Source: Acidobacteriota bacterium (GTDB lineage Bacteria > Acidobacteriota > Terriglobia > 20CM-2-55-15). From it: a DNA stretch of 49,106 nt. The first letter of the stretch is position 1; every line of letters begins with the position of its first letter. The stretch is taken from NCBI GenBank assembly GCA_022821265.1, contig JAJEDW010000076.1, positions 1 to 49,106 of the forward strand, read 5' to 3'. Below the pieces are notes generated by a model. That model searched no databases. It had not been told where the DNA came from and saw nothing but the letters and a program-made list of their open reading frames with translations. Shown here piece after piece: positions 26,763 to 47,233 of the stretch. A program made the translations under genes and the position numbers.

Positions 26763-28583
26763 CTACCCGTCGCCGCCGGAGTCTTCGTCGTCCGCGGGCG
26801 GCGGCGGATCCGGAAGCGGCTCGCCGTCCAGGACCAGCGCCACCATACGGGCCGGGACCATCGGTCCGTCTTCCTCCCCGCCGAAGCCGCCGCGGCCGAA
26901 TCCGGGACCGCTGCCGTTGACCTCGACGACGATGTACTGGCGCCCGTCCAGCTCGTAGGCGACCGGCGTGGCGAAGCTGCTGCCCAGGTATCCGGACCAG
27001 AGAGCCTCACCCGTCCCGGCGTCGTGCGCCCAGATCCGGCTGTCGCCCGGGCGGAACACCAGGTTGCCCGCCGTCGACAGCGTGCCGCCGCTGGTCCCGT
27101 TGCGTTCCACGCGCCAGACCTCGCTGTTGGTCACCGGATCCCAGGCCAGGACCACGCCGCCCCGGGGGCCCCTCAGTTCCGGCCGCGGCGGGCGATCATC
27201 GCCGGCGGCGCCGCGTCCGAACGGCACGCCGGTGTTGAACCCGCCGGGCTCGTATTCGAACTCGGCATCCACCGAGTAGAAGAAGTTGCTGCTTCCGGCG
27301 GGGAAGTAGACCAGGCCCGTATCCGGGTTGTAGGACATCGGATGCCAGTTGTGGGCGCCGCCGGGACCGGGACTCACCCAGACCCCCGTGCTCTCCGCGT
27401 CGTAGCGGGCGTCGGGGTTCTCGATGGGACGGCCGGTTTCCTGATCGATGCCGGTCGCCCAGGTCACGTCGTCTGAGAACGGTTGCGCGGAGATGAACGC
27501 GCCGCTGGTCCGGTCGATCACGTAGAAGAACCCGTTCTTGGGCGCCTTGACGATGACCTGGCGTTCCCGCCCGTCGATTTCCAGATCCAGCAGCATCAAC
27601 GGCTGCACGGCCGTGTAGTCCCAGTCGTCTCCCGGGGTGGTCTGGTAGTACCAGCGCATCTCGCCGGTGTCGGCGTCCACGGCGACGATGGACGAAAGAT
27701 AGAGGTTGTCGCCGCCTTCCGGACTGCGGATGGCGCGGCTCCAGGGCGAGCCGTTGCCCGTTCCGATGTAGAGGAGGTTCTCTTCCGGGTCGAAGGCGTA
27801 GCCGTCCCACACGGTGCCGCCGCCCCCGACGATCCACCACTCCCCGGACCAGGTCTCGGCGGCGCGCTCCATGGCCTCGCTCTCGAAACCGTCGGCCGGG
27901 TTCCCCGGCACGGTATGGAATCGCCAGAGCTGTTCGCCGGTCTCGGCGTCGTAGGCGGTGACGTATCCGCGCACGCCGAACTCGGCGCCGCTGTTGCCGA
28001 TCACGACCTTGTCGTTGACGACGCGCGGCGCCCCGGTGATGCTGTAGTCCAGGCCGAGGGGCGTGGTCTGGACCGCCCAGTCCACCAGGCCCGTGGCGCG
28101 GTTCAACGCTACGAGCCGCCCGTCGAGAAGCCCCGCGAACACCTTGTCGCCGTACATCGCAAGCCCGCGGTTCACCGGCCCGCAACACACGCTCGGCCCC
28201 CCGTCGGCACGGCTGCGCACGATCCCGGGATCCCAGCGCCAGATCTGCTCGCCGGTCCGCGCGTCGATGGCGAAGACGTTGCTCCAGGTCCCGGTGGCGT
28301 AGATCACGCCGTCGCGCACCAGCGGCGTGGATTCGAGGTTGCCGGCGGTGCCGGCGATTTCCCATTCCCAGGCCAGACCGAGCCGTTCGACGTTGGAGTC
28401 GTTGATCTGATCGAGCGGACTGTAATGCGTTTCGGCGTAGTCGCCGCCGTAGGTCAGCCACTCCGCATTGGGCGAATCCAGCAGCGCGTCCCGGTCCACG
28501 GGTTGTTGGGCGAGGACGACGCCCGCTGCCAACCCCATCGCAACGGCCAGACACCATCTCATCCGAGCCAGTGTGTTCGGCAT
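26763..28583 (-). CDS. PQQ-dependent alcohol dehydrogenase family protein (no heme c domain)
   Basis: Signal peptide VLA|[19 protein letters not shown] vicinal disulfide, [23 protein letters not shown] and GAHNW motifs. GGAAGGAG RBS. Confidence 0.93.
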   Translation of the reverse strand: MPNTLARMRWCLAVAMGLAAGVVLAQQPVDRDALLDSPNAEWLTYGGDYAETHYSPLDQINDSNVERLGLAWEWEIAGTAGNLESTPLVRDGVIYATGTWSNVFAIDARTGEQIWRWDPGIVRSRADGGPSVCCGPVNRGLAMYGDKVFAGLLDGRLVALNRATGLVDWAVQTTPLGLDYSITGAPRVVNDKVVIGNSGAEFGVRGYVTAYDAETGEQLWRFHTVPGNPADGFESEAMERAAETWSGEWWIVGGGGTVWDGYAFDPEENLLYIGTGNGSPWSRAIRSPEGGDNLYLSSIVAVDADTGEMRWYYQTTPGDDWDYTAVQPLMLLDLEIDGRERQVIVKAPKNGFFYVIDRTSGAFISAQPFSDDVTWATGIDQETGRPIENPDARYDAESTGVWVSPGPGGAHNWHPMSYNPDTGLVYFPAGSSNFFYSVDAEFEYEPGGFNTGVPFGRGAAGDDRPPRPELRGPRGGVVLAWDPVTNSEVWRVERNGTSGGTLSTAGNLVFRPGDSRIWAHDAGTGEALWSGYLGSSFATPVAYELDGRQYIVVEVNGSGPGFGRGGFGGEEDGPMVPARMVALVLDGEPLPDPPPPADDEDSGGDG

Positions 28584-28650
28584 CGCTCTCCTTCCTCCAA
28601 GTTCGGCCGCACGGGACCTGCGACTCACCGGTTTTCAACAGCGTGCGGGA

Positions 28651-29215: not shown

Positions 29216-29424
29216 CGGATGTCTCCTTGACGGCAAGGCGTGGGAGCCGGTTCGGCCCGGTATTCAGCGTCTTTCCGTCGTCTGCCGCGTCCGCAAGGGC
29301 ATCATCGCCTACGAATTCCGCGCTTGGCAAGGCCCTGTGCGGAGCGGACGCCGGCAACCGTTGGGAACGGACCCATCCGGGTGTTCGCGGGCTCGGAACA
29401 CCGCCGAGGCGAGCCGCGGCAGTA

Positions 29425-29826
29425 TCATTCGTCGTCCCAGTTTCCGATGGTCGTTCCGTCGGCGAACTTCGCGCCGACGAACCCCCCGGCCGGCGCCCCG
29501 CTCAGCATCGGACGATAGCGCATCGTCACTTCGGCGCCCACTGGAAAGCTGGACGGGCGGATTCCGCGCCGGCCCAACTGGTTGGGGCTGCCCCACTCGA
29601 TGCTCCATTCCACGCTCTCCCCGCTCTCGTCCTCGACGAGCACCTGGATCCAGGTGTGGGGGTTCGTGAACTGGAAATACTTGACCGTGCCGGCGATCTG
29701 CCGGACTTCGTCCCGGGAGAACCCGGTGTTGGAGTGATGACCGAGCGCCGGGCGGGCGGCCAGGCACAGCCCGGCCGCGGCCACGCCGACAAGAGCGGCG
29801 TTTCCGAAGAGTCGTTGTCGCGTCAT
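29425..29826 (-). CDS. Exported His-His/NPH protein (DUF6152-like), copy 1
   Basis: Signal peptide ALG|HHSN, then GTV...FTNPHTWI...WSIE...LGRRG. Not listed separately in the ORF track (it is the tail of 29425..30681). Confidence 0.8.
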   Translation of the reverse strand: MTRQRLFGNAALVGVAAAGLCLAARPALGHHSNTGFSRDEVRQIAGTVKYFQFTNPHTWIQVLVEDESGESVEWSIEWGSPNQLGRRGIRPSSFPVGAEVTMRYRPMLSGAPAGGFVGAKFADGTTIGNWDDE

Positions 29827-29858
29827 GGCAAGCCCCTTGGGTTCGGAGATCGGTCGCC

Positions 29859-30704
29859 TCAATCGAGCGGAAACGGGTTCCCGTCCGGGTCGAGCGTCAA
29901 CGTGACGCCCTGTTCCGTATCGACCGGATTGCGGTTGTTTTCCGCGCACCCGTAGTCGTACACCATCGTGCCCGGCGGCAGTCTTCGAAACTGGTGCGTG
30001 ACGGGCCACGGCCCGGTCAGGGCCTGCGGATCGGTGATGACCATGTCGATCTGAAGATTGCCCGCATCGTTCACGTACATTCGATGCGTCCCTTCCGCCT
30101 GGTTGCTCAGCACGAGGCCCGTGCGATCGAGCAGGACATCCCGGTCCATCCAGCCCTTCGTGCTCTTGGTTTCCCACACGAGTGTCCGACCCTCCCAGCG
30201 CCCCACCGAGACACCCGTGTACGTGGGCCAGCGGTCTTCCGGAGCGGGCATCTCGCGCCCGTCGGTGTAGATCCTGTAGACGTTGGGTCCGTTCTCGCTC
30301 AGGATCCACGTCTGTTCCGGCCGAACGACCATCTCGTAGACGTCCGGCAGGTTGAAGATACGGGGCCACCCCACGGGAACCCCGCAGTTGGATATGACGT
30401 CCGGGAACCGTTGCTGGTCCCTCAGCGCCAGGTGCTCCCGGTACATGGCTTCCCACTCGGCGTTGTAGGGCGGATGCTCCCGGACCCCCGGAGTCGTCGA
30501 ACCGCCCTCCCCCTCCCGGGTCGCCTGATCGAAAACCGTGCCGCCGATCATTTGCCAAACGCCGCTCCAATCCGGGAGATCGCCGAAGTCGGGCGGGGTG
30601 TCTCCCTGAGCGCGGGACGTACCCGGCGCGAGGAGGAGAATGACGCCGAGACCGGCAATCAGGGCGGCCCTTCGAGACCACAGTGACTGGCTGCTATTCC
30701 ACAT
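29859..30704 (-). CDS. Exported two-Cys 'WEGDTL' domain protein, copy 1
   Basis: Signal peptide SRA|Q. PDWSGVW, NCGVPVGWPR, GRWEGRTLVWET, DP..LTGPW and YGCAENN. Alternative TTG start at 30713. Confidence 0.8.
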   Translation of the reverse strand: MWNSSQSLWSRRAALIAGLGVILLLAPGTSRAQGDTPPDFGDLPDWSGVWQMIGGTVFDQATREGEGGSTTPGVREHPPYNAEWEAMYREHLALRDQQRFPDVISNCGVPVGWPRIFNLPDVYEMVVRPEQTWILSENGPNVYRIYTDGREMPAPEDRWPTYTGVSVGRWEGRTLVWETKSTKGWMDRDVLLDRTGLVLSNQAEGTHRMYVNDAGNLQIDMVITDPQALTGPWPVTHQFRRLPPGTMVYDYGCAENNRNPVDTEQGVTLTLDPDGNPFPLD

Positions 30705-30857
30705 GACCTTCAACCTCGTGACTCGCGGCTCCTTCCGAAACGGCTCGGCTGCGATTCGGGACTGAAACCCGACGGTAACGGAATTGTAAATTCAGTGCCC
30801 GCCGCACGACAAGCCCGAACGACGGCCGGCGGGAGCGCATCTGTTAACGTTACGGGC

Positions 30858-31574
30858 GTGGCAGCGCAAACCATCCGTATAGAGACTCGATTTCGAGGAC
30901 CGCGAAACTCCGGAAACGGCGGTTACACGTGCGGCCGCGTGGCCGAGTTCATCGACGGACCGGCGCGCGTCCGTCTGCGCGTGCCGCCGCCGCTGGACGC
31001 GCCTCTCGACGTCGAACGACACGGCGACGGCGTCCGCGTCGTCCGCGGCGAAACGCGGATCGCCGAAGCCTGGCCCGCGTCCGATCTCGAGCTCGACGTG
31101 CCGGCGCCGCCGGGCTTCGACGACGCCGAGCGGGCATCCCGGGATTTCAGCGGCTTCCGGAGCCACCGGTTCCCGACGTGTTTCGTGTGCGGCGTCGATC
31201 GGAAACCCGGCGACGGCCTCCGCCTCTTTGCCGGCCCGGTCGCGGACCGTGACCTGGTGGCCTGCACATGGATCCCCGACCCCTCCCTGTCCAAGGACGG
31301 ACGGACGGTCGATCCGGTCTTCGTCTGGAGCGCGCTGGATTGTCCGGGCGGTTTCTCGTTCCCGCATCCACGGTCCGGAACGATTCTCCTGGGAGAACTG
31401 ACGGTCCGGTTGCAGGCGCCCCTGGAACCCGGCGCGCCCGCCGTCGTCATCGGTTGGCAGATCGGCCGGGACGGGCGCAAGCACTTCACCGGCACGGCGC
31501 TGTTTTCCTCCGGCGGCGCCGTGTGCCACGGCGCCGGCCGCGCCACGTGGTTCGAGGTCCCGGACGATCCCTGA
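30858..31574 (+). CDS. Hotdog-fold thioesterase-like protein
   Basis: FRGPRNSGNGGYTCG, HRFPTCFVCG, WSALDCPG and GRKHFTGTAL motifs. GTG start inferred. Confidence 0.72.
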   Translation: MAAQTIRIETRFRGPRNSGNGGYTCGRVAEFIDGPARVRLRVPPPLDAPLDVERHGDGVRVVRGETRIAEAWPASDLELDVPAPPGFDDAERASRDFSGFRSHRFPTCFVCGVDRKPGDGLRLFAGPVADRDLVACTWIPDPSLSKDGRTVDPVFVWSALDCPGGFSFPHPRSGTILLGELTVRLQAPLEPGAPAVVIGWQIGRDGRKHFTGTALFSSGGAVCHGAGRATWFEVPDDP

Positions 31575-31592
31575 CACCCCCGCCCGGCGCCG

Positions 31593-31608
31593 TTAACAAC
31601 GTTTAACA
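31593..31608 (+). promoter_or_regulatory. TTAACA-N4-TTAACA direct repeat, candidate transcription-factor site
   Basis: TTAACA at 31593 and 31603 (10-bp phase), in an otherwise GC-rich intergenic region upstream of the phosphatase gene. Confidence 0.4.
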
Positions 31609-31685
31609 CTCCGCCCCGTAGCGTTGGGGGCCCGGCCGCCGTATTCGCCTATAGACAACGGCCAAACGGCGGAAGGGAGCGAGCG

Positions 31686-33119
31686 ATGGCGTCAGGCACA
31701 CGGAAGACGGGAAGAAAGCAGGTATGGTTCCGCGTTTTTCTCGCGGGCGGACTGACGCTGGCGCTGATCCTGTTGGCGCACACGGTGTCGACGTACGTCT
31801 ACGTGTCGGGCAACATGGTGACTCAGGCGTCGCTTCGGGACGCGGCATCCCGGCTGCGTTCCGTCGAACGCCACATTCGCGGCGCCGGCGTCAGCGATCC
31901 GGCGGCTCTGTCGGAGGCCCTCGAAGAAGTCCGGACCGAGTCGGACCCTCCCATCGCCTGGTTGAGGCTGATCCGCCCGGACGGTTCGGTGCTGGCGTCC
32001 ACGGCGGCCGCCCTCGACCCGCCGGTCTCCTTTTCGAACCTGCGCCAATCCGCGGCGGATGCGGGAACGTTCCACGAAACCCGCCAGACCCCGGACGGAA
32101 CGGTTCTGGTCACGGCCTTTCCCGTGCGGCTGAATCCGGGCGGCCGGGCCGGGGCGCTCCTGGAAATGGCCGTGGACCCGGACGCCGCGGCCGCCAGTTT
32201 CGCCTATCTGCGCGTGAACCTGGTGATCGGCGTGTCGGCGGCGTTGGCGTTGCTGGGAACGCTGGTGCTGGTCCGCCTCCGGTTTCCGCACTATCTCCGT
32301 GGGAAGCAACTCGAGAACCAGGTGGCGACGGCCCGGTCCGTGCAGAACCGTTTGCTGCCGAACTCGACTCCGGCCTCGGCCGCGGCCGAAATCGCCGCCG
32401 ATTGCCAACCGGCGGGTCACGTCGGGGGCGACTTCTACGACGTCTTCGAGACCGACCGGAGCCGGTTGGCGCTGATTCTGGGAGACGTGTCGGGCAAGGG
32501 GATCGCCGCGGCGCCCCTGATGGGGTTCATCCACGGCGCGGCCCATGCCAGCGAGTGGACGGAGTCGACCTACGACCACGAGCGCGCTTCGCGGCGCCTC
32601 AACGACCTGGTGTGCCGCAAGACCGACCCGGAGCGTTTCGTCAGCATGTTCTGGGCGTATTTCGACGCCGACGACCATCGGCTGCGCTATGTCAACGCCG
32701 GCCACTTGCCCGCCCTCATCGTGCGGAACCCGCGCACCGGAGCCGGAACACGCCGCCTGGAAGACGGCGGGCCCGTTCTCGGCGTGGTGCCCGGCGCCGC
32801 CTACACGCAGGGCGCCGTGGAGATCGAGCCCGACGATGTTCTGGTCGTGTATTCCGACGGCATCGTCGAGGCTTCGAACGCGCGCGACGAGGAATTCGGA
32901 GAAGCGGGGATCGCGCGCGCCGTCGCCGAATCCTGGCGTGAGCCGGCCGAGGACATCCGGGCCCGGATTCTCGCCGCGCTCGACGGGTTCACCGGAGGCC
33001 GTGCGCCGGAAGACGATCGGACCCTGATCGTGATCCGGTTCGGACAGGCGGCCGTCGAGGCGCGCCCCGAAAGAGCCGCGCCCAATGAGGCCGTGGCCGA
33101 AGTCGCCATGTGCGCGTGA
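31686..33119 (+). CDS. Membrane-anchored PP2C/SpoIIE (RsbU-like) Ser/Thr phosphatase
   Basis: Two TM segments flank an extracytoplasmic domain. VGGDFYD, GDVSGKG, NAGH, YSDG and EDDRT motifs. Confidence 0.92.
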   Translation: MASGTRKTGRKQVWFRVFLAGGLTLALILLAHTVSTYVYVSGNMVTQASLRDAASRLRSVERHIRGAGVSDPAALSEALEEVRTESDPPIAWLRLIRPDGSVLASTAAALDPPVSFSNLRQSAADAGTFHETRQTPDGTVLVTAFPVRLNPGGRAGALLEMAVDPDAAAASFAYLRVNLVIGVSAALALLGTLVLVRLRFPHYLRGKQLENQVATARSVQNRLLPNSTPASAAAEIAADCQPAGHVGGDFYDVFETDRSRLALILGDVSGKGIAAAPLMGFIHGAAHASEWTESTYDHERASRRLNDLVCRKTDPERFVSMFWAYFDADDHRLRYVNAGHLPALIVRNPRTGAGTRRLEDGGPVLGVVPGAAYTQGAVEIEPDDVLVVYSDGIVEASNARDEEFGEAGIARAVAESWREPAEDIRARILAALDGFTGGRAPEDDRTLIVIRFGQAAVEARPERAAPNEAVAEVAMCA

Positions 33120-33137
33120 ATGCGACGAGCGCGATCC

Positions 33138-33165
33138 TTGCAAATTAGCAAACCGTTTCTATAAT
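33138..33165 (+). promoter_or_regulatory. sigma70 promoter of a probably leaderless ATPase gene
   Basis: TTGCAA, 16-bp spacer, perfect TATAAT. ATG follows 6 nt later with no RBS. Confidence 0.65.
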
Positions 33166-33171
33166 GCAAGA

Positions 33172-34320
33172 ATGCTGCGCCGTCGGATCACGGACCTGCT
33201 CGGCCAGCGCCTGACCGATTATCCGGCCGTCGCGCTGATCGGATCGCGTCAGAGCGGCAAGACCACGCTGGCCCGGTCGTTGGACGGGATCTATTTCGAC
33301 CTGGAACAACCGGCCGACCGATTGCGGCTCGACCTCGGCTGGGACGAGGCCGCCGCCTCCGCGCGACTGATCATCCTGGACGAAGCCCAGGCCGCGCCGG
33401 AGGTCTTTCCCCGCCTGCGCGGGGCGATCGACGCCGACAGGAAGCGCCACGGCCGATTTCTGCTGCTCGGCTCGGTTTCGCCGGAACTGACGACCCAGGT
33501 CTCGGAGTCCCTGGCGGGCCGGCTCTCGATCGTCGAGTTGACGCCCCTGTTGCTGCCGGAGCTGGACAGCCCGACCGCGCTTCGGCGAATGTGGCTACGG
33601 GGCGGCTACCCGGACGGCGGCGTGTTGGGAGGCGCCGGATATCCCGTGTGGCAACGCGACTATCTGAGTTTGCTCGTTCAAAGAGACCTTCCCAACTGGG
33701 GCTTGCCGGCTCGCGGCGAGGCCATCCGGCGCTTGTTCGGCATGCTTGCCGCCCGTCATGGCCAGGTATGGAACGCCAGCGAGATCGGGAAGGGATTGGG
33801 CATGTCCTACCACACCGTGAACGATTACCTGAACTACCTGGAAGGAGCGTTCCTGATACGGCGTCTGCCGGCGTATCACGCCAACATTGGCAAGCGGCTC
33901 ATCAAGCGGCCGAAGGTCTACTGGCGGGATTCCGGACTGCTCCACGCGCTTCTGAACGTGGAGGATCCGAATCACCTCCTGGCCCAACCTTGGGTCGGTT
34001 ACAGTTGGGAGGGCTTCGTCGTGGAACAGGTCCTCGGCGCCCTGAGCTCGGGCGGGCGGCCCGTCGACGCCTATTTCCTGCGAACCTCCGACCAGCGTGA
34101 GATCGACCTGATCATTCGTTTCGGCCGGGAGTTGTGGGCCGTCGAGATCAAGCTGACCACCCAGCCCGTCGACGCCGACATGCGGCATTTGAACGCCACC
34201 GCCGACCTGATCGGCGCCGACAAGCGGATCCTCATCTCACAGGGCCGGGAGTCCGTCGACGGCGGGTCCCGGATGCTCTGTAATCTTCCGGACTTTCTGA
34301 GCCACATCGCCGCGGCATAG
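33172..34320 (+). CDS. AAA_14 ATPase with C-terminal DUF4143 (PD-(D/E)xK-like) domain
   Basis: GSRQSGKT Walker A, ILDEAQ Walker B, SESLAGR, RGGYP, PKVYWRDSG and EIDL...AVEIK. Confidence 0.9.
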   Translation: MLRRRITDLLGQRLTDYPAVALIGSRQSGKTTLARSLDGIYFDLEQPADRLRLDLGWDEAAASARLIILDEAQAAPEVFPRLRGAIDADRKRHGRFLLLGSVSPELTTQVSESLAGRLSIVELTPLLLPELDSPTALRRMWLRGGYPDGGVLGGAGYPVWQRDYLSLLVQRDLPNWGLPARGEAIRRLFGMLAARHGQVWNASEIGKGLGMSYHTVNDYLNYLEGAFLIRRLPAYHANIGKRLIKRPKVYWRDSGLLHALLNVEDPNHLLAQPWVGYSWEGFVVEQVLGALSSGGRPVDAYFLRTSDQREIDLIIRFGRELWAVEIKLTTQPVDADMRHLNATADLIGADKRILISQGRESVDGGSRMLCNLPDFLSHIAAA

Positions 34321-34332
34321 CGGCGCCGCCCC

Positions 34333-36033
34333 TCAGTCCAGGGAGAACGTCCACACCGCCGAGCCGCCTTCGCCGCCCCGGCCCGCCATGACCGAGACGT
34401 ATTGGCGGCCGTCGAGCGCGTAGGTGACGGGCTGCCCCGGGCCGGGGGCCGTGGCCGCTTCCCAGAGCGTCTCGCCCGTCTCGGCGTCCAGCGCCTGGAA
34501 CCGGCCGTCGGCCTTGCCGACGAAGAGCAGGCCGCCGCCGGTCGAAAGCGTGCCCCCGTGAGAGCCGTCGCCGGCGATGCGCCACCGCTCTTCCTGGGCC
34601 ACGGGATCCCACGCGACCAGGAACCCGCCCCGGTTGGGCATCCCCGGGTTCGGAGGCCGGACGAACCCCTCGGGCGCCCCGCCGCGGCCGATCAATCCCG
34701 TGTTCGAGCGTCCGAACTGGTACTCGTACGCCGTGTTGACGGCAAAGTAGTTGTTGCCGTTCTGACCGGGAATGTAGACCAGGCCCGTCGCCGGGTTCCA
34801 CGACATGCCCTGCCAGTTGTGCGCGCCGTAAGGGCTGGGCCACAGCCACGCGGGACCGGTCCGGCTGTAACGCGCGTTCGCGGCTTCGATGGGACGGCCC
34901 GTTTCCGGATCGACGCCCTCCGCCCAGTTGACTTCCGCGAACGCCTCGGCCGATATGAACGCGCCCGTCACGCGATCGATGACGTAGAAGAAGCCGTTCT
35001 TCGGCGCCTGCATCAGCACTTTCCGTTGGCGGCCTTCGATCGTCAGCTCCGCCAGGATCATCGGTTGCACGGCGGTGTAGTCCCATTCGTCGCCGGGCGT
35101 CGTCTGGTAGTACCAGACGAGCTCGCCGTCGTCGGGCCGCACGGCCAGGATCGACGACAGGTAGAGGTTGTCGCCGCCGCCGGGGCTCCGGAGCGTCTGC
35201 GTCCAGGGGCCCCCGTTGCCGGTGCCGACGTAGAGCAGGTCCTCCTCGGGGTCGTAGGCGAACGCGTCCCAGACCGTCCCGCCGCCGCCGAGCTCCCACC
35301 ATTCGCCCGTCCATGTCTCGGCCGCGCGCGCCAGCGCGTCGCTCTCGAAACCGTCGGCGGGGTTGCCGGGCACGGTATGGAAGCGCCACGCCTGCTCGCC
35401 GGTTTCCGCGTCATAGGCGGTGAAATACCCGCGGACGCCGAATTCCGCCCCGCCGTTGCCGATGACGACCTTGCCCTTCACGACGCGCGGCGCCCCGGTG
35501 ATGCTGTATTCGTCGTCCCTGGGCGTGGTCTGGACCGACCAGACGACGCGCCCATTTTCGGCGTCGAGCGCCACCAGGCGCCCGTCGAGGAGACCGACGT
35601 ATACCTTGCCCGCGTACAGGGCCGCGCCCCGGTTGACCGGACCGCAGCACAGGTGCGGCCCGCCCGGGCCCCGGGGGATGCCCGCGTCCCATCGCCAGCG
35701 CTCCTCGCCCGTGCGCGCATCCAGCGCGAACACGCTGTTCCAGGTTGTGGTCCCATACATGACCCCGTCGGCGATGAGCGGCGTCGCCTCCAGCGTTCCG
35801 GTCGAATCGGTATCGTAGGACCAGGCCGGCGCCAGCCCGCCGACGTTGTCCGTGTCGATCAGATCGAGCGGGCTGTGTCGCGTTTCCGCGTAGTCGCGGC
35901 CGTTGGACAGCCACTCCTCCGCCGGGACCTCCCGCAAACGCGTGTCGTCGACGGCTTGGCGGGCCAGGGCGTGGCCGCCCCAACCCAGCAGGGCCATCGC
36001 CAACAAGCCGGCGCGAAAGTTGCAGGTGCGCAT
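34333..36033 (-). CDS. PQQ-dependent alcohol dehydrogenase family protein, paralog 2 (no heme c domain)
   Basis: Signal peptide. [32 protein letters not shown] and GAHNW motifs. Start re-called at 36033. Confidence 0.93.
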
Positions 36034-36106
36034 GGCGGCCTCTCTTGTAATACACGCGCCCGGAAAGTACAAACGGATTTGCGGAACGCCCACCGGGAGG
36101 GTCGAC

Positions 36107-37468
36107 ATGTCCAACGCCGAGACAACGCACATGAATCGGAGGGAGTTCGCCGGAACTCTGGGCGCCGGGGCCGCCGTGCTGACCTCGTGCGCCTCGGGAC
36201 CATCGGCGCCGCCCGACGCCCGGCCCAACGTCATCTACGTCATGGCCGACGACATGGGCTATGGAGACCTCAGCGGCTACGGACGCCCCGACGTGGAAAC
36301 GCGCGCCCTGGACCGCCTCGCCTCCGAGGGCGTGCGGTTCACGCAGGCGTATTCGACCGCGCCGATATGCACGCCGACGCGAGTCGGGATGGTGACGGGC
36401 CGTTACCCGGCCCGCCATCCCGTCGGCCTGATGGAACCGCTGCGCACGGGCGTGGCGGCGCATCGGCTCATGGGGTTCGATCCGGAACACCCGACCCTGA
36501 GCTCGCTCCTGCAGGGCGGCGGCTACACGACCGCGTTGTTCGGAAAGTGGCACCTGGGCTGGCTGCCCGAGTACCGTCCCGAGCGCCATGGCATCGACGA
36601 GTTCTTCGGCCCCCTGGGCGGGTCGATCGATCACATCAGCCACATGAACGCCATGGGCGAACACGACCTCTACCGCAACGGCGAGGAAGTCTTCGAGGAC
36701 GGGTACTTCACCGATCTCGTGACCGACCATGCCGCCCGTTTCCTGGCCGAGCGGCGCGAACCGTTCTTCCTGAGCCTGCAATACACGGCGCCCCACTGGC
36801 CGTGGCAGCGACGGAACGATCCGCCCTACGAAGCCGGCCGGCCGCTGGACGACGACGGCCCGCCCGGGATCTATCCCGAAATGCTCCGGATATTCGACGA
36901 GAACGTGGACCGCCTGATGGCGGCCGTCGACGACGCTGGCGTTCGGAACAACACGATCGTGATCTTCACCAGCGACAACGGCGGCGAACGCTACTCCAAC
37001 ATGGCCGGTCTGGCCCGTGCGAAAGGCGAAGTCTGGGAGGGGGGCATTCGCGTGCCCGCTTTCGTGCGTTGGCCGGGCGTCATCCCGGCCGGCGGAACCA
37101 CGACGCAGGTCGCGATGGGATTCGACTGGACGGCCACGATCCTGGCCGCCGCCGGCGTCGATGCGGCGGAAACGCATCCGTTGGACGGAATCGACCTGAT
37201 GCCGGTGATGCGTGGAACGGCGCCGGCCGTGGAACGCACGCTCTTCTGGCGGACGTTCCAGTCATCGCGGCAGGGAGCCGTTCGGAGCGGTGATTGGAAA
37301 TACCTCCGGGACGAACAGGGCGAGCACCTGTTCAACCTGACCCTCGACGCCGGAGAACGCAACGATCTCGGCGAAGTCGAAACCGCCCGGTTCGAGCGGC
37401 TCCGGGCCGCCTACGTGCAGTGGGACGCGGAAATGCTGACGCCGGTTCCCCTGGCCCTGGACGCCTGA
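36107..37468 (+). CDS. Sulfatase (Cys-type) with twin-arginine lipoprotein-like signal
   Basis: NRREFA Tat motif and LTS|C lipobox. [28 protein letters not shown] and EGGIRVP. Alternative start at 36131. Confidence 0.9.
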
Positions 37469-37494
37469 GCTTCCGGCGGGCTCGCGCGGCCTCC

Positions 37495-37522
37495 TTGCAA
37501 CATCCCACGGCTGGGGTAAATT
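37495..37522 (+). promoter_or_regulatory. Putative sigma70 promoter of putA
   Basis: TTGCAA, 16-bp spacer, TAAATT, then AGGAGG RBS. Confidence 0.5.
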
Positions 37523-37542
37523 AGAGTCAGGAGGTTCGGCGC

Positions 37543-40494: not shown

Positions 40495-40695
40495 CGCCGC
40501 GTCGGCCAGTCCTGGACGACCTACGGGTTCGGGAACGTCAGGGGAAAGCCGTACCGGCGTTGCCGAACCGGCCGAAGTCGGACGTTTCGGCGCCGGACCC
40601 CTGAGCGGAGAGCGATGACGGCATCGCCAACAACGCCGCAAGGGCGGCCGTTGGGACCACGCCGGGAAGACGGCCGTCGCGGGCGCGAAAACCCC

Positions 40696-41127
40696 TTATC
40701 GGGCCGGCTCGGTGGGGTCGGAGCCGTCCAGCGGCGCGCCCGTGCCCGACGAACCGGCAAACAGGCGCCGTCCATCGGGAAACGTCACGTCCCGCCCGTT
40801 GGCCCGGTTCGATCCGTCCAGCGCGCGATAGCCCTCGACCAGAACTTCCGTGCCCGGCACGACCGAATCCCGGTTCCACCCGCGCCGCACCAGCGCGCCC
40901 GGGGGGCCGGCTTCGATCATCCAACTTTCGACGGTGCCGTCCTCCAGGGTGACGTCCAGGTGCATCCAGGCGTGCGGATTGATCCATTCCATCCGCGTGA
41001 TCTGGCCGCGCAGGCGCACCGGCTGGGTCGAGTCGAACTCCGCCGCGAACGCATGATGGGCCATCGCCGGCTCGACGCCGATCAGCGCGAAGGTCACGGC
41101 CCACAGAAGAACCCAGGCCTTCCGCAT
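40696..41127 (-). CDS. Exported His-His/NPH protein (DUF6152-like), copy 2
   Basis: AMA|HHAF, then GQI...WINPHAWM...WMIE...LVRRGW. GAGG RBS. It is the tail of ORF 40696..41832. Confidence 0.83.
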   Translation of the reverse strand: MRKAWVLLWAVTFALIGVEPAMAHHAFAAEFDSTQPVRLRGQITRMEWINPHAWMHLDVTLEDGTVESWMIEAGPPGALVRRGWNRDSVVPGTEVLVEGYRALDGSNRANGRDVTFPDGRRLFAGSSGTGAPLDGSDPTEPAR

Positions 41128-41132
41128 CGTGA

Positions 41133-42866
41133 TCACCTCTCTTCGTCCTCGCCCGCCCGCTCCCGCGCGCGAGCCCCGGTGAGTATGTTGGTCATGCCGT
41201 AGTTGCCTTCGTGGCAGGCGTATTCGACCAGCTCGTATTGCGAGTCGTCCTTGTCGAAGGTGAACATCGCCGTCCAGGGCCGCGTCCAGGTCGACGGGTC
41301 GTCGACCGTGAAACGGTATTCGAGGATGTCGGGGCCGATCCGCGTGTACCGTTCGATCAGCGTGAGCGTCTCTCCGGATCCGCGGTACGGCGCCCGCCCG
41401 TTGAAGCCCCGGACCTCGACCACGAGCGTGTCCCCTTCCCAGCGGCCGCGGGAATCGCCGAGCCACTGCGTCAGGTTCTCGCCGAGTCGGGGCCGCGGCT
41501 CGGTTGGAACGATGCGGGTTTCGTGAATCATTTCTTTCGTGATCGCCACGTGTCCGGGACCCTGGACGATCTGCAGGCCGTTGTTGTAGATGCCCGGCAT
41601 CATCAGGCCGGGGAGGCCCCGCGTGATGCAGCGCACATAGTTGCTCAGGTCTTCCGGCCCCGCCGGCAGCCCGCCGCGTCCACGCCCGCCGCCGGACATG
41701 CGGGCCTGGGCCTCGGGCGTCAACGGCGGAAGCCGTCCGTCCGGCGGATCGATCACCATGGCCACCTGCGTGGACGGCGACGACCCGACCAGACCGAGCG
41801 TCGTGTCGCGCCACTCCCGCTCGTAGCCCCATATGCTGCCCAACGTGCCGCGTTCGCGCCGGGCGGCCGCTTCTTCCGGAGTCAGCGCCTCGACGCCCTC
41901 GAGGTCGCCGGGGCGTTCCAGCGGAATGCCGTGAGCCCGGTCCCCGGTCCAGATTCCCTGCAGGTCGGGAGCGCCCCAGGGCGTGCGCGGCGCCGTGTAC
42001 GGCTCCAGCGGCACGGCCGGGCCGGCGTCAGTCGCCAGCAGGGTGGTTTCACGACCCGCCCAGCCCGGCTCGACGACCGCCAGGGCCACGCTGTCCGGAC
42101 CCGCGACGAAGGCCCGCCGCGCCGATGTCCGGCCCGCCTCGGGTTCGCCCTCGAACGCGATGCCGGCTTGACTCATGACACCGGCGGCTTCGTCCAGGTC
42201 CGCGACCAGGAAGCCGATGTGGTCCACGGCCCGGCCGCGCGTCGGCGCCGGCGGCGCGCCTTCCGGGTGCGGCGAGACCAGGAGCCAGACGTTGTCGTAC
42301 ATCAGGCCGTCGAGTTCCTCGCCGAAACGGGCGCGCTCGCCCCCCATGACGGACTGATACCAGTCCAGGGTCGCTTCCGGCTCGGTCGAGCTGAGGTGCA
42401 CGTGGTGGAACCCGCTCCGCGACGGGTCTTCGAGAAGCTCGATCCGCGTGCCCCAGGGATCGAAGATGAATCCGTGCGCGAACAGCCCCGGCACGTCTCG
42501 AAACGTCGAACCGTCGTCGAACCGCTGCAACCGGACGCCCCGCCCGCCGACACCGACGCGTTCGAGCTCCGCCATCTTGTCCGCGAGGTCCGGGAAAGCG
42601 AAGCCGATGTGATTCACCCCGGTGCCCGGGCTGGCTCCGACCGTAACCAGGGCGTCGAAGTGGATCTCGACGCCGCAATCGACCGCGTCGGCGCGATCCG
42701 GGATCGCTTCGCATTCCATGTGGCGCACATACCAGGCGACGGCCTCGGTCGGGCTGGGAACGGCCAGATGGACGTGGTGGTAGTCCGCCGCCCGTGTCGG
42801 GTTCGGCGCGGCGGCCATCGAAACCGCGATGGCCAGGGACGTCAGGGCGGCATGTCTAGTGTTCAT
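41133..42866 (-). CDS. Exported fusion: tandem VOC (glyoxalase-like) domains + two-Cys 'WEGDTL' domain
   Basis: Signal peptide, then DYHHVHL..HIGF..IELLE and GFHHVHL..DHIGF..VVE (VOC). Followed by PDLQGIW, RCITRGLP, GRWEGDTLVVE and EYACHEGN. Confidence 0.83.
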   Translation of the reverse strand: MNTRHAALTSLAIAVSMAAAPNPTRAADYHHVHLAVPSPTEAVAWYVRHMECEAIPDRADAVDCGVEIHFDALVTVGASPGTGVNHIGFAFPDLADKMAELERVGVGGRGVRLQRFDDGSTFRDVPGLFAHGFIFDPWGTRIELLEDPSRSGFHHVHLSSTEPEATLDWYQSVMGGERARFGEELDGLMYDNVWLLVSPHPEGAPPAPTRGRAVDHIGFLVADLDEAAGVMSQAGIAFEGEPEAGRTSARRAFVAGPDSVALAVVEPGWAGRETTLLATDAGPAVPLEPYTAPRTPWGAPDLQGIWTGDRAHGIPLERPGDLEGVEALTPEEAAARRERGTLGSIWGYEREWRDTTLGLVGSSPSTQVAMVIDPPDGRLPPLTPEAQARMSGGGRGRGGLPAGPEDLSNYVRCITRGLPGLMMPGIYNNGLQIVQGPGHVAITKEMIHETRIVPTEPRPRLGENLTQWLGDSRGRWEGDTLVVEVRGFNGRAPYRGSGETLTLIERYTRIGPDILEYRFTVDDPSTWTRPWTAMFTFDKDDSQYELVEYACHEGNYGMTNILTGARARERAGEDEER

Positions 42867-42901
42867 GGCACGTGACCTCATGCATCGGACGGGCGTGTCT
42901 T

Positions 42902-43717
42902 TCAGTCCGCCGGCTCGCGCCGCAGGTGTCCGTAAATCAACTCCTCGGAAAACTCGACGCACTTGAATTCTAGGATTTGAACGTTTTCTTCAAGCCGGCG
43001 ATAGAGCGGCATGCGCATGGTCCATGGACGCGTGAAGACGTTCGGATCCTCGATCGTCGCTTCGTACATCATCGCGTTCGGCCCCAACGGCGTGTAACGC
43101 TCTTCCACGCGCAGCGTGTTGCTGGCGAAGTTGCCGGCGCGGTCGAACCAGGACTGGCCGTTGAATCCCGCGACGTCCACGACCAGCGTGTCGCCGTCCC
43201 AACGGCCATGCGAGCGCCCCATCCAGCTGTCGATCGGGGCCGGCTCGGGATTCTCCTTGTTCATGTGGATCGTCCGGCTCGTTTCCGCGAACCCGTAGAC
43301 GATCAGGATCGTGTCGTCGCCCTGAATGATCTGGAACGGGTACGGCAGGTAGGTGGCGCGCGGCACGCCCGGCATGTAGCACTTGATCTCGGGATCCTCG
43401 GTGAACCGGTTCTCGAAGTTCCGTTGCTTCTGCTCGAGCGCCCAGTCCTGGTACGGAATCTCGTTGCCTTCGACCACGCCCTGGCCGGGCGGAATCGCGC
43501 CGATCGCCCCCATTTCGGGCAGGCCGGCCGCTGCGGCATGGTCCTGAATGTCCCAATGCGCCGTGCCGATGGCTTGCCAGATGCCGTTCAGGTCGGGGCG
43601 CCCGTCCCAGGCGCGGGCGAGGTCGGCCTCCTGGGCCGCCGCAACGTTCGCGAATACCAGGAGCGCCGCGGCCGCAAGCGACGTCCGGCGACTCCACCGA
43701 TGATGCTCGAACCCCAT
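42902..43717 (-). CDS. Exported two-Cys 'WEGDTL' domain protein
   Basis: AAGGAG RBS, signal AAA|Q. PDLNGIW, KCYMPGVPR, GRWDGDTLVVD, EDP..FTRPW and EFKCVE. Confidence 0.83.
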   Translation of the reverse strand: MGFEHHRWSRRTSLAAAALLVFANVAAAQEADLARAWDGRPDLNGIWQAIGTAHWDIQDHAAAAGLPEMGAIGAIPPGQGVVEGNEIPYQDWALEQKQRNFENRFTEDPEIKCYMPGVPRATYLPYPFQIIQGDDTILIVYGFAETSRTIHMNKENPEPAPIDSWMGRSHGRWDGDTLVVDVAGFNGQSWFDRAGNFASNTLRVEERYTPLGPNAMMYEATIEDPNVFTRPWTMRMPLYRRLEENVQILEFKCVEFSEELIYGHLRREPAD

Positions 43718-43768
43718 GGACCCTCTCCTTATAGGGTGCCGCGTCACGGCAGTCAAGAAACGGACGGC

Positions 43769-44170
43769 CTACTGGAGCGTGATCCTGAAATCGCCGGCCG
43801 TGTCTCCGTGGCGCCACGTGCCGACGACGGAGCGGGTGGGCGACCCGAGGTCCTCGATCCGGCCGTCGATGACGTATGTGATCGGGTTTCCGGCGGGGTC
43901 CTCCGCCTCGATCCGGATGTGTACGGACCAGTCGCTCGGGTCGAGACGCGCCTCGGTGAACGGCAGGTCGTCCGTGCCGGGATTGACGATTCCCGTGATC
44001 CGCTGCCCGTCCCAGTCCATGGCCACCCGGATACGGTTCCGGTGGTCCGGCGACGGCCCCCAGTAACCGACCCAACTGCCGGTCAGCGGGTGCGCCTCCT
44101 GGGACGAGACCCCGGGCGCCGCGCCGACAACCAGCAGAAGCCCCAACGGGATGCAGAGGGAAAGTTTCAT
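43769..44170 (-). CDS. Small exported beta-rich hypothetical protein
   Basis: Signal MKLSLCIPLGLLLVVGAAPGVSS|QEAHP, then LTGSWVGYWG, MDWDG..ITG.VNPG and GTW...GDF. Confidence 0.75.
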   Translation of the reverse strand: MKLSLCIPLGLLLVVGAAPGVSSQEAHPLTGSWVGYWGPSPDHRNRIRVAMDWDGQRITGIVNPGTDDLPFTEARLDPSDWSVHIRIEAEDPAGNPITYVIDGRIEDLGSPTRSVVGTWRHGDTAGDFRITLQ

Positions 44171-44207
44171 TGTCTCGCGGGGGTCGAATGGCCGCAGAAT
44201 ATACCGC

Positions 44208-45377
44208 ATGAAGACCGGAGCACAACACCCGGAAAGACTTCGCCGGAGGAGGGGCGTCGACCCGCGCACCGCGCGGCGAACGCGGACGGCGCTGATCGGC
44301 GCCTGGTTGTGGGCGTGCGCGCCGCCGCTGGGGGCGCATCATGTCGCCGCCGCCAAGTTCGATCCGGAACGGCCCGTTCGGTTCGAAGGCCGGGTCACCA
44401 AGGTCGATTGGGCCAATCCTCACGTCCACGTCTTCGTCGACGTCGAAGCCCCCGGCGGAGTCGCCAACTGGGCGATCGAGCTCGAAAGCCGCGCGTCCCT
44501 GGAAGCTTCCGGATGGCGGGCCGACACGCTCGCGCTCGGCGAGCCTGTCACGGTCGACGGTTGGGCCGCCCGGGACGGCAGTCTTCAAGCCTGGTCGACG
44601 GCGCTGGCCCGGAGCGGGACCGACGCGCGTCTGTTCGAAACGACGGACCCGGTCGCGGCGTCGGTCCCGTTCCGCGAGACGCCGCGATGGCCGGACGGCC
44701 AGCCGCGTTTGGGACCGGTCCCCGGCGAAACCGGATACTGGGGGAATCCGACGGCGACGGCGCTCGTGGAAGTCGGTGCGGACGTCGAGGTCAGTCCCGA
44801 CGGCATCCTGGCCGACCTGGGCGACGCGCCCGCCGTTGCGCCGTTCCAGGATTGGGCGCTTGCGTTGTACGAGGCCCGGCAGCGCGACTTTCTCGGCAGC
44901 GATCCGAGCTTCCTGAGATGCATCCCGCCGGGCGGCCCCCGGCAGTTCCAGTTGCCCTACGGCGTTCAATTCGTCGAGCAGCGGGATCGGGAGCGCATCT
45001 TCGTCCTCGTCGGGAGCGGCAACCGCAATTGGCACTTCATCTACACCGATGGAAGGGTCCAGGTCGGCCAGATCACCGGAGACGACGACAACCCGCTGTA
45101 CTACGGCCGTTCCGTCGGCGCGTGGGAGGGCGACACGCTCGTCGTGGACACGCGCGGCTTCAACGAGGATTTCTGGTTTTCCAACGGCGGCCTGCCGCAC
45201 ACCGAACGCCTCCATCTGATTCAAAGGATCACGCGCGTGGACTTCGACACGCTGCGTTACGAGGTGACGATCGACGACGCGGGCGCGTACACGCGGCCGT
45301 GGACGGCGGGTTGGAACCTGGAGTGGATCGCCGGCCGGGAACTGCCGGTATACTTCTGTCAGGACAACCGGCCATGA
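44208..45377 (+). CDS. Exported fusion: His-His/NPH (DUF6152-like) domain + two-Cys 'WEGDTL' domain
   Basis: LGA|HHVA...DWANPHVHV...WAIE, followed in frame by PRWPDG, RCIPPGGPR, GAWEGDTLVVDT and YFCQDN. Confidence 0.85.
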   Translation: MKTGAQHPERLRRRRGVDPRTARRTRTALIGAWLWACAPPLGAHHVAAAKFDPERPVRFEGRVTKVDWANPHVHVFVDVEAPGGVANWAIELESRASLEASGWRADTLALGEPVTVDGWAARDGSLQAWSTALARSGTDARLFETTDPVAASVPFRETPRWPDGQPRLGPVPGETGYWGNPTATALVEVGADVEVSPDGILADLGDAPAVAPFQDWALALYEARQRDFLGSDPSFLRCIPPGGPRQFQLPYGVQFVEQRDRERIFVLVGSGNRNWHFIYTDGRVQVGQITGDDDNPLYYGRSVGAWEGDTLVVDTRGFNEDFWFSNGGLPHTERLHLIQRITRVDFDTLRYEVTIDDAGAYTRPWTAGWNLEWIAGRELPVYFCQDNRP

Positions 45378-46210
45378 GACGAAACCATTGCCTGCTGACG
45401 GCTGCGGTGTCGATTCTGCTCGGGGTCCCGGCGCCGCCGGCGTTCTCGCAGGCCGCCGACGCCGTGGAGCCGCGGCCCGCCCCCCGATGGCCGGACGGCC
45501 GGATCCGTCTGGACGCGGTTCCCGGAGAGACGGGCATCTGGTACGGCCCGGGCGGCCCCGTTCCCGGCTTGGCCGATTGGGACGACAACCCGCAGCCGCA
45601 CCCGTTTCCCGGCCGGCCCACAGTCAGCGAGGTGCCGTTCCAGCCGTGGGCGCGCGCCCTGATCGACTACCGCGACGTCAACCAGTTCGAACCGCACGCG
45701 CGCTGCAAGCCGTCGGGCGGCGTCCGGCAGTTCGTGACCCCGTACGGGAACGAGATCGTCGAGATGCGCGATCTGGAGCGCGTGTACATCTTCGACGTCG
45801 GCGGCCCACACACGTTCCGCATCGTCTACATGGACGGCCGCGAGCACCCCGAAGACCTGACGCCCAGCTATTACGGCCATTCCATCGGCTGGTGGGAAGG
45901 CGACACGCTGGTGGTCGACACCGTGGGATTCAACGAGAAGTTCTGGATCGACCGCCGAATCACGGTCCATACGCGGCAGCTCCACCTGATCGAACGGTTC
46001 ACGCGCACCAGCCATGACACCATGGAGTACGTCGTGACCATCGACGATCCCGGCGCATACACGGAACCCTGGACCAGCGGCATGTACCTGCGGTTCCGGC
46101 CGGGTCAGGAGATGTTCGAGTACATCTGCCAGGACCAGAATCAGGCCTTCGAGCTCATGGTGGGCACGCAGGTCGAGTCGTATTTCCGGCAGAGCCGGAT
46201 CGCGCCCTGA
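45374..46210 (+). CDS. Exported two-Cys 'WEGDTL' domain protein
   Basis: ATGA overlap with the upstream gene, signal AFS|Q. PRWPDG, RCKPSGGVR, GWWEGDTLVVDT and EYICQDQN. It is the last 278 aa of the 1077-aa ORF. Confidence 0.83.
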   Translation: MRRNHCLLTAAVSILLGVPAPPAFSQAADAVEPRPAPRWPDGRIRLDAVPGETGIWYGPGGPVPGLADWDDNPQPHPFPGRPTVSEVPFQPWARALIDYRDVNQFEPHARCKPSGGVRQFVTPYGNEIVEMRDLERVYIFDVGGPHTFRIVYMDGREHPEDLTPSYYGHSIGWWEGDTLVVDTVGFNEKFWIDRRITVHTRQLHLIERFTRTSHDTMEYVVTIDDPGAYTEPWTSGMYLRFRPGQEMFEYICQDQNQAFELMVGTQVESYFRQSRIAP

Positions 46211-46230
46211 CCCGATACGGAAGGGGGCGG

Positions 46231-46848
46231 ATGATGCTATCCCGACTCGTTTTCGCGGCGCTGGCCGCGTTTCTCGCGATCCCCGCTCTCGCGCAGGGTT
46301 GGGAGACCTACGTCAACCGCGAGGACCGGTTCAGCGTGAACTTTCCGGGCGAGCCCGGGGTGGAGGCCATCAAGTGGGACTCGGAGTATCGCGCCGTCTT
46401 CCCGGGCCGCGTCTACAGTTACGAAGACGGCGGCGAACGGTATTCCGTCACGGTCATCGACTACTCCGATTCCGAACGCATCCACGCCGAACGGACCAAC
46501 AGGACGCAGGCCGACAGCCTGCCGAACTACTGGCAGATCGACGTGCTCTCGTCCATCGCGTATGCCGCGTGGCAGTTCCGGCAACGCGCGGTCGAGGTCA
46601 CCTACGACGCCTGGCACTACATCGACCTGATCGCCGGGCACCAGCTCCAGCTCACCAATCCCGACCAGACGCGTTCGTTCGTGGGCATCTACCTCCACGA
46701 GAGCCGCCTCTACATCATCGAAGCGACGGCGCCTCCGGGTTCCCCGCCGCCCGGGCTGTTCCAGCAGTCGCTGACGTTTCTCGACGACGCGGGCAACCGC
46801 GTGCGGTACGACTACATCTACACGAACACACTGCCGCCGCTGCGCTGA
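46231..46848 (+). CDS. Exported hypothetical protein (possible PsbP/DcrB-like fold)
   Basis: Signal ALA|Q. W..Y....RFSVNFP at the start and RLYIIEAT...FQQSLTF at the end resemble PsbP/Mog1-type proteins (inference). Confidence 0.72.
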   Translation: MMLSRLVFAALAAFLAIPALAQGWETYVNREDRFSVNFPGEPGVEAIKWDSEYRAVFPGRVYSYEDGGERYSVTVIDYSDSERIHAERTNRTQADSLPNYWQIDVLSSIAYAAWQFRQRAVEVTYDAWHYIDLIAGHQLQLTNPDQTRSFVGIYLHESRLYIIEATAPPGSPPPGLFQQSLTFLDDAGNRVRYDYIYTNTLPPLR

Positions 46849-46861
46849 AGGAAGGAGAGCC

Positions 46862-47233
46862 ATGCCTTCGATACTGTCGCCTCTCGCAACCGGCTTGGCG
46901 CTGGCGGCCGCCCCGGCGGCCATGGCCCACCATTCGCACGGAAACTACGAGATGACCGAGTACATCCGGATGGAGGGCACGGTCACGGAGATCCACTGGA
47001 TCAACCCGCATAGCTGGATCTACCTGGAAGTCACCGGCGAGGACGGGCAATCCGATGTGTGGGCGCTGGAAGGAGCGAGCGTCATCGAGCTCCGGCGGGA
47101 GGGCTGGGCCGAGGAGAGCATCCGTCCAGGCGACCGGATCGGCGTACGCTGCCATCAGCTCCGCGACCGGTCCAACGGGTGTCTGCTCGGATACGTCACG
47201 ACCGACGGAGGCGAAGAAAAGCTGTTCGACTGA
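46862..47233 (+). CDS. Exported His-His/NPH protein (DUF6152-like), copy 4
   Basis: AMA|HHSH, then GTV...WINPHSWI...WALE...LRREGW. GGAAGGAG RBS. Confidence 0.85.
   Translation: MPSILSPLATGLALAAAPAAMAHHSHGNYEMTEYIRMEGTVTEIHWINPHSWIYLEVTGEDGQSDVWALEGASVIELRREGWAEESIRPGDRIGVRCHQLRDRSNGCLLGYVTTDGGEEKLFD

Follow-up and report, generated by a model that had tools for sequence, protein, structure and literature searches.

Four secreted proteins encoded on a contig of an Acidobacteriota bacterium (NCBI GenBank assembly GCA_022821265.1, contig JAJEDW010000076.1, positions 1 to 49,106; this whole 49,106-nucleotide stretch is referred to as the window) belong to the Pfam family DUF6152 (PF19649), a catalogued domain whose function is not assigned, and the mature chain of each is predicted to begin with two histidines. 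We call the domain domain A and the four proteins P1 to P4, and we put the probability that domain A carries a metal site involving its N-terminal histidines at about 0.5. Such a site best explains three features taken together: three histidines are invariant and no other polar residue is, the full set depends on the domain standing at the N-terminus of the chain, and that N-terminus is modelled with confidence. The His-His start is also far more general in the family than the preliminary description of this DNA could see.

All four window proteins match DUF6152 well above its curated gathering cut-off of 27 bits, with E values of 1.7e-23 to 2.1e-32 for the three stand-alone proteins. These are P1 (29425..29826, minus strand, 133 aa, E 1.7e-23, 83 bits), P2 (40696..41127, minus strand, 143 aa, E 2.1e-32, 111.6 bits) and P4 (46862..47233, plus strand, 123 aa, E 6.2e-31, 106.8 bits). 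P3 (44208..45377, plus strand, in a frame that opens at 44151; E 3.3e-19, 69.2 bits) is a natural fusion of domain A (44337-44666) to a second domain, domain B (44667-45374), and is one of 13 such fusions in the genome. The preliminary description had proposed four open reading frames, each with His-His right after its leader, and the frames and their translations bear this out; the positions it gave (29826, 41127, 44208 and 46862) are those of the start codons. The signal peptides end in RPALG, EPAMA, PLGA and PAAMA and are followed by HHSN, HHAF, HHVA and HHSH in P1 to P4 respectively, placing the mature His1-His2 codons at 29734-29739, 41053-41058, 44337-44342 and 46928-46933. The P3 leader is long and arginine-rich, and the n-region of P4 has no lysine or arginine, its sole reason for failing the simple signal-peptide test described below. 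Mature P2, P3 and P4 domains are just 26-37% identical to that of P1, and in the alignment of the four (in its own numbering) 13 columns are invariant, namely H1, H2, G17, N26, P27, H28, V35, G40, W45, E48, L55, G59 and G68. Since all four are members of one family, their shared His-His start is not a matter of chance. No NCBIfam model matched any of the four, and beyond DUF6152 a Pfam comparison at E values up to 10, in which the HMMER filters discard most matches above about 0.1, returned just chance-level rows for DUF2291 (0.13) and PDZ (0.31).

The window is one contig of a 3.88-Mb genome that is 85.6% complete, and that genome holds 86 DUF6152 matches, every one above the curated cut-off. 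A domain-A profile derived from the copies in the window, searched iteratively against six-frame open reading frames, likewise gave 86 strong domains, three of which are cut by contig ends, leaving 83 with a complete N-terminus. His-His directly follows an AxA-type signal-peptidase site in all 83: residue -1 is Ala in 68, Gly in 10, Ser and Pro in two each and Thr in one, and residue -3 is Ala in 51, Val in 12, Leu in seven, Gly in five, Ser and Thr in three each and Glu and Trp in one each. A signal-peptide test (a start codon 14-50 residues upstream, a lysine or arginine in the n-region and a hydrophobic core) was passed by 79 of the 83, with leaders of 19-44 residues, so that cleavage is predicted directly before His1. 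Tat (twin-arginine) export as the rule was rejected, a loose twin-arginine pattern being found in just six of the 83.

Exactly four columns are invariant over these paralogues: His1, His2, the histidine of the Asn-Pro-His (NPH) motif (H29 in the family numbering) and Gly69, which leaves the three histidines as the only invariant polar residues. Near-invariant positions are Gly18, Pro28, Gly41 and Gly60 (80 of 83 each) and Asn27 and Trp46 (75 each). A separate alignment of 36 rows, with a mean column identity of 41%, has H1, H2, G18, H29 and G69 invariant. His1, His2 and the NPH histidine thus behave as a single functional unit that depends on the mature N-terminus, which partly supports the earlier suggestion that they contribute to a metal site. 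The accompanying statement that N-P-H and W-x-x-E are invariant holds among the four window copies and fails family-wide for the Trp (75/83) and the Glu (70/83), where Glu49 gives way to Gln in four paralogues, Ser in three and other residues in six. It had also been proposed that this Glu is a ligand alongside the three histidines, which the counts do not support as stated: because it is replaced in 13 of the 83, Glu49 is more likely a second-sphere residue or general base than an obligate ligand.

The pattern extends well beyond this genome. Among 1.84 billion representatives clustered at 50% identity, the domain-A profile found 14,017 proteins at E <=0.001 and 7,115 at E <=1e-10. The best 150 of the 14,017, a diverse set, gave 140 first domains with an aligned N-terminus, 137 of them with all three histidines intact. 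In the called proteins of this set His1 usually falls at residues 22-29, and the position before it (-1) is Ala in 126 of 142. His-His was likewise found in 88 of 88 domain-A copies from 85 loci of other genomes. P2 has many orthologues at 75-91% identity, the closest named ones lying in metagenome-assembled genomes labelled Acidobacteria, Vicinamibacterales, Bryobacterales and Thermoanaerobaculia and also in some Gammaproteobacteria. A search of the ESM Atlas with domain A returned DUF6152 clusters only. Within the same taxonomic family 18 relatives were searched and 14 have DUF6152: 12 carry from 43 to at least 112 matches each and the other two a single match. Among 12 genomes drawn from the other families of the class one has it, as do nine of 121 in a phylum-wide sample. 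We found no paper in the literature under the names DUF6152 or PF19649, nor one joining N-terminal histidine, OB-fold, periplasmic and copper.

A site that uses the free N-terminus should be lost when the domain is placed inside a longer chain, and the tandem proteins fit this prediction. The best 150 representatives include 11 second domains in tandem A-A proteins, and the only one to retain all three histidines, in P0122, is preceded by its own signal peptide, which marks it as a merged gene call rather than a truly internal domain. None of the 10 truly internal second domains has an intact triad: three keep HH with the NPH histidine changed to Arg, one keeps HH with Asn there, and the rest have HQ with the histidine or lack HH. 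In the genome of the window, domain A comes first in all 13 A-B fusions, and two frames with an OB-like domain after B are without HH. From these alignments the full triad appears to be retained only where the domain begins at the cleavage site, which suggests that its function is tied to the free N-terminus.

The predicted fold gives this N-terminus a defined setting. An AlphaFold2 model of mature P2, made with the 36-row alignment, has a mean pLDDT (predicted local distance difference test) of 87.4 and a pTM (predicted template modelling score) of 0.78, and residues 1-10 average a pLDDT of 86, so the N-terminal tail is predicted to be ordered. DSSP assigns strands at residues 8-25, 30-37, 43-49, 71-79 and 85-92 and a helix at 53-58, and in the model domain A is an OB (oligonucleotide/oligosaccharide-binding) fold, a barrel of five strands with the helix falling between the third and the fourth. 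Foldseek returned OB domains only (best E 2.6e-3), and VIA-align placed the model closest to PriB (4apv; Z 9.9, root-mean-square deviation (rmsd) 2.3 Å, 81 residues aligned) and the single-stranded-DNA-binding protein SSB (4dam; Z 9.3, rmsd 3.0 Å, 86 aligned). Most alignments with solved OB proteins start at model residue 10-11, and because those proteins align only from about residue 10, the preceding HH-[S/A]-F-x-A-E-F-D segment is, as modelled, a family-specific 10-residue N-terminal extension ahead of strand 1; the hydrophobic residues of its motif are F4 and F8. A sequence search of the Protein Data Bank (PDB) with the domain-A profile returned just a chance SUMO row (E 0.012).

In the same model the NPH motif lies in the loop between strands 1 and 2, and Trp46 and Glu49 lie on strand 3, the usual ligand face of an OB fold. 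Co-variation was computed as mutual information with average product correction on 331 sequences, with an effective number (Neff) of 199, and recovered the strand pairings, including the mutual-information pair 33-47; by the strand register, Glu49 and His29 are expected to occupy adjacent strands and to face the same side of the sheet. Signals from the N-terminal segment, at the same Neff, are weak and ambiguous (10-51 at 0.110, 10-44, 11-44 and 8-47 at 0.069).

Domain A rarely stands far from domain B, which is also secreted and is present in 128 copies in the genome. B lies within 1 kb of 76 of the 86 A domains, 70 of them on the same strand and 13 fused, and among same-strand pairs A is upstream in 35 and downstream in 35. 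Every A gene in the window adjoins or is fused with domain B. A secreted 284-aa B protein (29859..30713, minus strand), identified by alignment to B, is encoded on the strand of P1, 32 bases upstream of it, and the two genes make up an A/B unit. P2 is the last gene of a three-gene operon, B - B' - A, which opens with a 284-aa B protein (42902..43756, minus strand) and continues with a 609-aa protein (41133..42962, minus strand) that carries an N-terminal glyoxalase or vicinal oxygen chelate (VOC) domain (PF13669, 3.9e-11; PF00903, 5.5e-11) ahead of a C-terminal domain B and ends 5 bases before the P2 start; its VOC domain we take to belong to a dioxygenase superfamily. Downstream of P3 a 278-aa B protein (45374..46210, plus strand) begins with an ATG that overlaps the P3 stop codon TGA as ATGA (45374-45377), an arrangement that suggests translational coupling.

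Neither Pfam nor NCBIfam has a match to domain B, which elsewhere forms a very large unnamed family. A PDB sequence search with its profile gave nothing below E 0.32, an ESM Atlas search gave unnamed clusters with sub-0.9 leads to DUF3471 and Glyoxalase, and Pfam on 16 long stop-to-stop frames containing B, mostly artefacts of high G+C, gave nothing besides DUF6152. A model of the B protein at 42902..43756 (pLDDT 82.4) was matched by Foldseek to 1crb (E 4.6e-4) and by VIA to 5xn9 (Z 9.1, rmsd 3.3 Å, 121 aligned) and 5b0u (Z 8.8), with nitrobindin (3ia8, Z 7.0) and a haemophore (8xjc, Z 5.5) further down. At these moderate Z values the modelled domain B is a closed calycin-like barrel resembling the FABP/CRBP proteins. 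Its invariant residues are two cysteines, Gly81 and Asp138 (124/124), and Glu120 (115/125), Arg62 and Trp87 are near-invariant. A complex prediction from the B alignment, Zn and the A alignment gave ipSAE scores of 0.00 and 0.00 and no contacts, a result that is uninformative on A-B binding and on the position of a metal. Together the A and B families make up a sizeable unexplained share of the secreted proteome of these genomes.

The genes around these modules point towards oxidative and hydrolytic catabolism. Neighbours were assigned with a crude caller based on G+C at third codon positions, which recovered 54 A-containing genes against 86 six-frame A domains, so the counts are lower bounds. 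At least 12 of the 39 members of a pyrroloquinoline quinone (PQQ)-dependent dehydrogenase family, defined by clustering, are no more than two genes away from an A or B gene (background share 10.5%), and tannase, amidase and amidohydrolase families also recur near A and B genes in this genome. The window holds two PQQ-dependent dehydrogenases of that 39-copy family, one at 26763..28628 (minus strand; PF01011, 4.8e-76) and the second at 34333..36234 (minus strand; PF01011, 7.4e-77). A small secreted protein that we call Y (43769..44269, minus strand) is matched at 12 further places in the genome, several of them right next to an A-B fusion gene, and from this placement may be a third component of the fusion subfamily.

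Five genomes with a single copy of domain A (L141-L145) share a recurring cluster of B (about 305 aa), B' (about 377 aa) and then A, and the window operon of B, VOC-B and P2 has this same arrangement. Upstream of the cluster a PQQ dehydrogenase with a cytochrome-c domain is found in two of the five genomes and a PQQ propeller on the opposite strand in a third. DUF6644 membrane proteins flank it, two of them in three of the five loci and at least one in the other two. The two single-copy loci that were scanned (L141 and L142) also have a beta-lactamase-family hydrolase and a small protein whose resemblance to cytochrome c' is weak (E 1.1e-3, short of the cut-off). The B' proteins of these two genomes gave no glyoxalase/VOC match in Pfam, and in the genome of the window DUF6644 genes occur near A genes on contigs C161 (8594-9487) and C246 (887-1888).

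The mechanism we propose from these data is as follows. Domain A would be exported through the Sec route and cut by signal peptidase so that His-His become its first two residues, held on the ordered 10-residue extension. His1, His2 and probably the free amine would then join the NPH-loop histidine in holding a single metal ion at the face of the OB barrel that usually binds the ligand, with Glu49 of strand 3 near the metal as a second-sphere residue or base. An N-terminal histidine chelates copper through its amine and imidazole, and NH2-X-His is a high-affinity Cu(II) site, so that histidines at positions 1 and 2 speak for Cu(II); a His-rich site that folds in the periplasm is expected to take Cu(II) or Zn(II). 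We therefore favour Cu(II) or Zn(II) as the probable metal, nearly all copies having a Sec-type leader and so presumably folding in the periplasm. Domain A would work with one or two secreted calycin-like B barrels, which would hold a small hydrophobic ligand, and the A/B module may serve periplasmic oxidative and hydrolytic catabolism, recurrently adjoining PQQ and cytochrome-c dehydrogenases.

It should be considered that several results weigh against this proposal. In an OB fold strand 1 is long and bent, and its start is at a different end from the loop that follows it; with His1 and His2 before strand 1 and NPH after it, a site within one chain needs the extension to fold back. The co-variation gives weak hints of this, residues 5 and 7 coupling to 76-88 more strongly than 8-11 couple to 44-51. 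Glu49 is replaceable, as described above, domain B has no conserved histidine, and the conserved core cluster showed no gene for copper handling. HH persists in four internal domains despite their position, and its role may accordingly be independent of a free amine. Finally, some 100 copies in one genome is not what a metal chaperone looks like. That number, the calycin-like partner and the catabolic neighbours together argue against a chaperone for homeostasis, and we favour substrate-diversified binding or catalysis for the A/B modules.

Other explanations of the three histidines fare less well, in our judgement, than a metal site formed within domain A. They might instead form a non-metal site that binds or acts on an organic ligand such as an anion or an aromatic compound, or might supply axial ligands to a haem or other tetrapyrrole held in the barrel of domain B. 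We regard this as unlikely, while acknowledging what speaks for it: the resemblance of domain B to FABP/CRBP, nitrobindin and haemophore structures, a core cluster with cytochrome-c-containing PQQ dehydrogenases and the weak cytochrome c'-like protein, and the HH of the four internal domains. Three invariant histidines with no other invariant polar residue are nevertheless the usual signature of a metal site, the triad decays once the domain is not N-terminal, and for the haem version nothing points to a need for some 100 haem carriers per genome. Slightly less likely again is a metal site assembled across chains, His1 and His2 of one chain being completed by the NPH histidine of a second A chain, in a dimer like that of SSB or PriB, or by the acidic residues D138 and E120 of domain B. 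Such a site would suit the topology that sets the N-terminus and loop 1-2 apart, the oligomeric state of the best structural neighbours, the fusion of A and B in 13 genes, and the invariant Asp and near-invariant Glu of a domain that has no conserved His. Oligomers are, however, without direct evidence, and the independent loss of HH and NPH in internal domains is compatible with either arrangement.

The least probable of these explanations, and one to which we give very little credence, is that HH is kept for processing, sorting or folding, as a determinant for signal peptidase or sorting or as a structural cap, and not as a functional site. HH does always abut the cleavage site, and F4 and F8 could be read as hydrophobic anchors for the N-terminal motif. 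Against this, the B proteins secreted from the same operons do not begin with HH, the third invariant histidine is 27 residues away in a loop, and we know of no requirement of signal peptidase for histidine at +1 or +2.

The metal site within domain A invites comparison with other sites of this kind. To our knowledge N-terminal-histidine metal centres are few (lytic polysaccharide monooxygenases (LPMOs), CopC and particulate methane monooxygenase), and each discovery opened new copper chemistry. Fungal LPMO families have large numbers of paralogues, which is reminiscent of domain A. In a published review the histidine brace is described as copper chelated by the amine and pi-nitrogen from a histidine at the N-terminus together with another histidine's tau-nitrogen, trans to the first, in a T-shaped CuN3 arrangement, with CopC, PmoF1, YcnI and X325 as variants acting mostly in copper transport (PMC10952591). 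The proteins of these families (LPMOs of AA9-AA17, CopC, PmoB and the PCuAC-type PmoF1, X325/Bim1 and the "mono-histidine brace" YcnI; PMC10952591) are secreted and have a signal peptide cut right before a histidine that becomes residue 1, as is predicted for domain A; a sequence-distant second histidine that completes the site, for which His2 and the NPH histidine are the candidates in domain A; and sometimes, as in X325, a carboxylate in the fourth position, a further possible likeness to domain A. Domain A differs in that its second histidine immediately follows the first, in its calycin-like partner and in its predicted fold, an OB barrel where LPMOs and CopC are immunoglobulin-like beta-sandwiches or cupredoxin-like; its listed structural neighbours are all OB folds. 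None of the brace-family models LPMO_10, CopC, YcnI/DUF1775 and PCuAC was listed for P1-P4 in the Pfam comparison at E up to 10. Domain A thus appears, from sequence, to have the precondition of a histidine brace while falling outside the known brace families in sequence and in predicted fold. If a metal site of this kind is indeed present, it would place an N-terminal-histidine centre on a fold not known to carry one, and would be a new structural variant.

A more ambitious version of this idea would make DUF6152 a new OB-fold class of histidine-brace-type copper centre. With domain B as its second component it would oxidise small hydrophobic or aromatic substrates in the periplasm, an analogue of the LPMOs whose substrates are not polymers. 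Its electrons would come from the PQQ and cytochrome-c dehydrogenases next to it, and in one bacterial family it would have diversified until each genome had about 100 A/B modules, specialised for different substrates. We hold this LPMO-like copper oxidase to be quite improbable, and grade it much below the metal site as such.

Among other known systems CusF is the obvious counterpart, a periplasmic OB-fold Cu(I)/Ag(I) chaperone whose His/Met/Met/Trp ligands lie in the barrel strands and include no N-terminal residue. It resembles domain A as a small periplasmic OB-fold protein with its metal on the barrel face, where the domain-A site is putative, and it differs in having one or few copies per genome against about 100; no CusF match from Pfam was listed for P1-P4, and the structural neighbours listed for the P2 model included neither CusF nor any other OB protein that binds metal in the periplasm. 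SSB and PriB, the best structural matches, are cytoplasmic DNA binders at 13-22% identity without the N-terminal extension, and nucleic-acid binding by domain A is unlikely because the domain is exported. Cupins such as germin, quercetinase and CucA/MncA have mononuclear sites of three His, or three His and one Glu, and the export route decides which metal is acquired. Three histidines and a carboxylate as the conserved polar set recall domain A, but the fold is unrelated and no cupin ligand is an N-terminal residue. Two further N-terminal motifs were considered and set aside. The amino-terminal Cu(II)- and Ni(II)-binding motif (NH2-X-X-His) is ruled out by position 3, which is never His in the 83 paralogues (Ser 51, Ala 23, Gly four, Val two, and Pro, Arg and Asn one each). 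The nickel hook of nickel superoxide dismutase is His1-Cys2 ... Cys6; in domain A residue 2 is His in 83 of 83, and at profile positions 1-9 Cys never ranks in the three commonest residues.

Some further genes of the window may be recorded. Between the PQQ dehydrogenase at 26763..28628 and P1 lies a DUF1902 protein (28970-29236, E 8e-17) within 28776-29357 on the minus strand, and a frame overlapping there looks like part of a small toxin-antitoxin pair, a resemblance judged by eye only. Two plus-strand frames beside A and B genes (30795-31574 and 46231-46848) are without a Pfam match and without strong paralogues in the genome. Further away, the window contains two sulfatases (6130-7710 and 35903-37468) and, at 16075-18651 on the plus strand, a protein of 858 aa that carries a G8 domain (E 6.5e-29) and a CEMIP beta-helix domain (E 1.2e-80).

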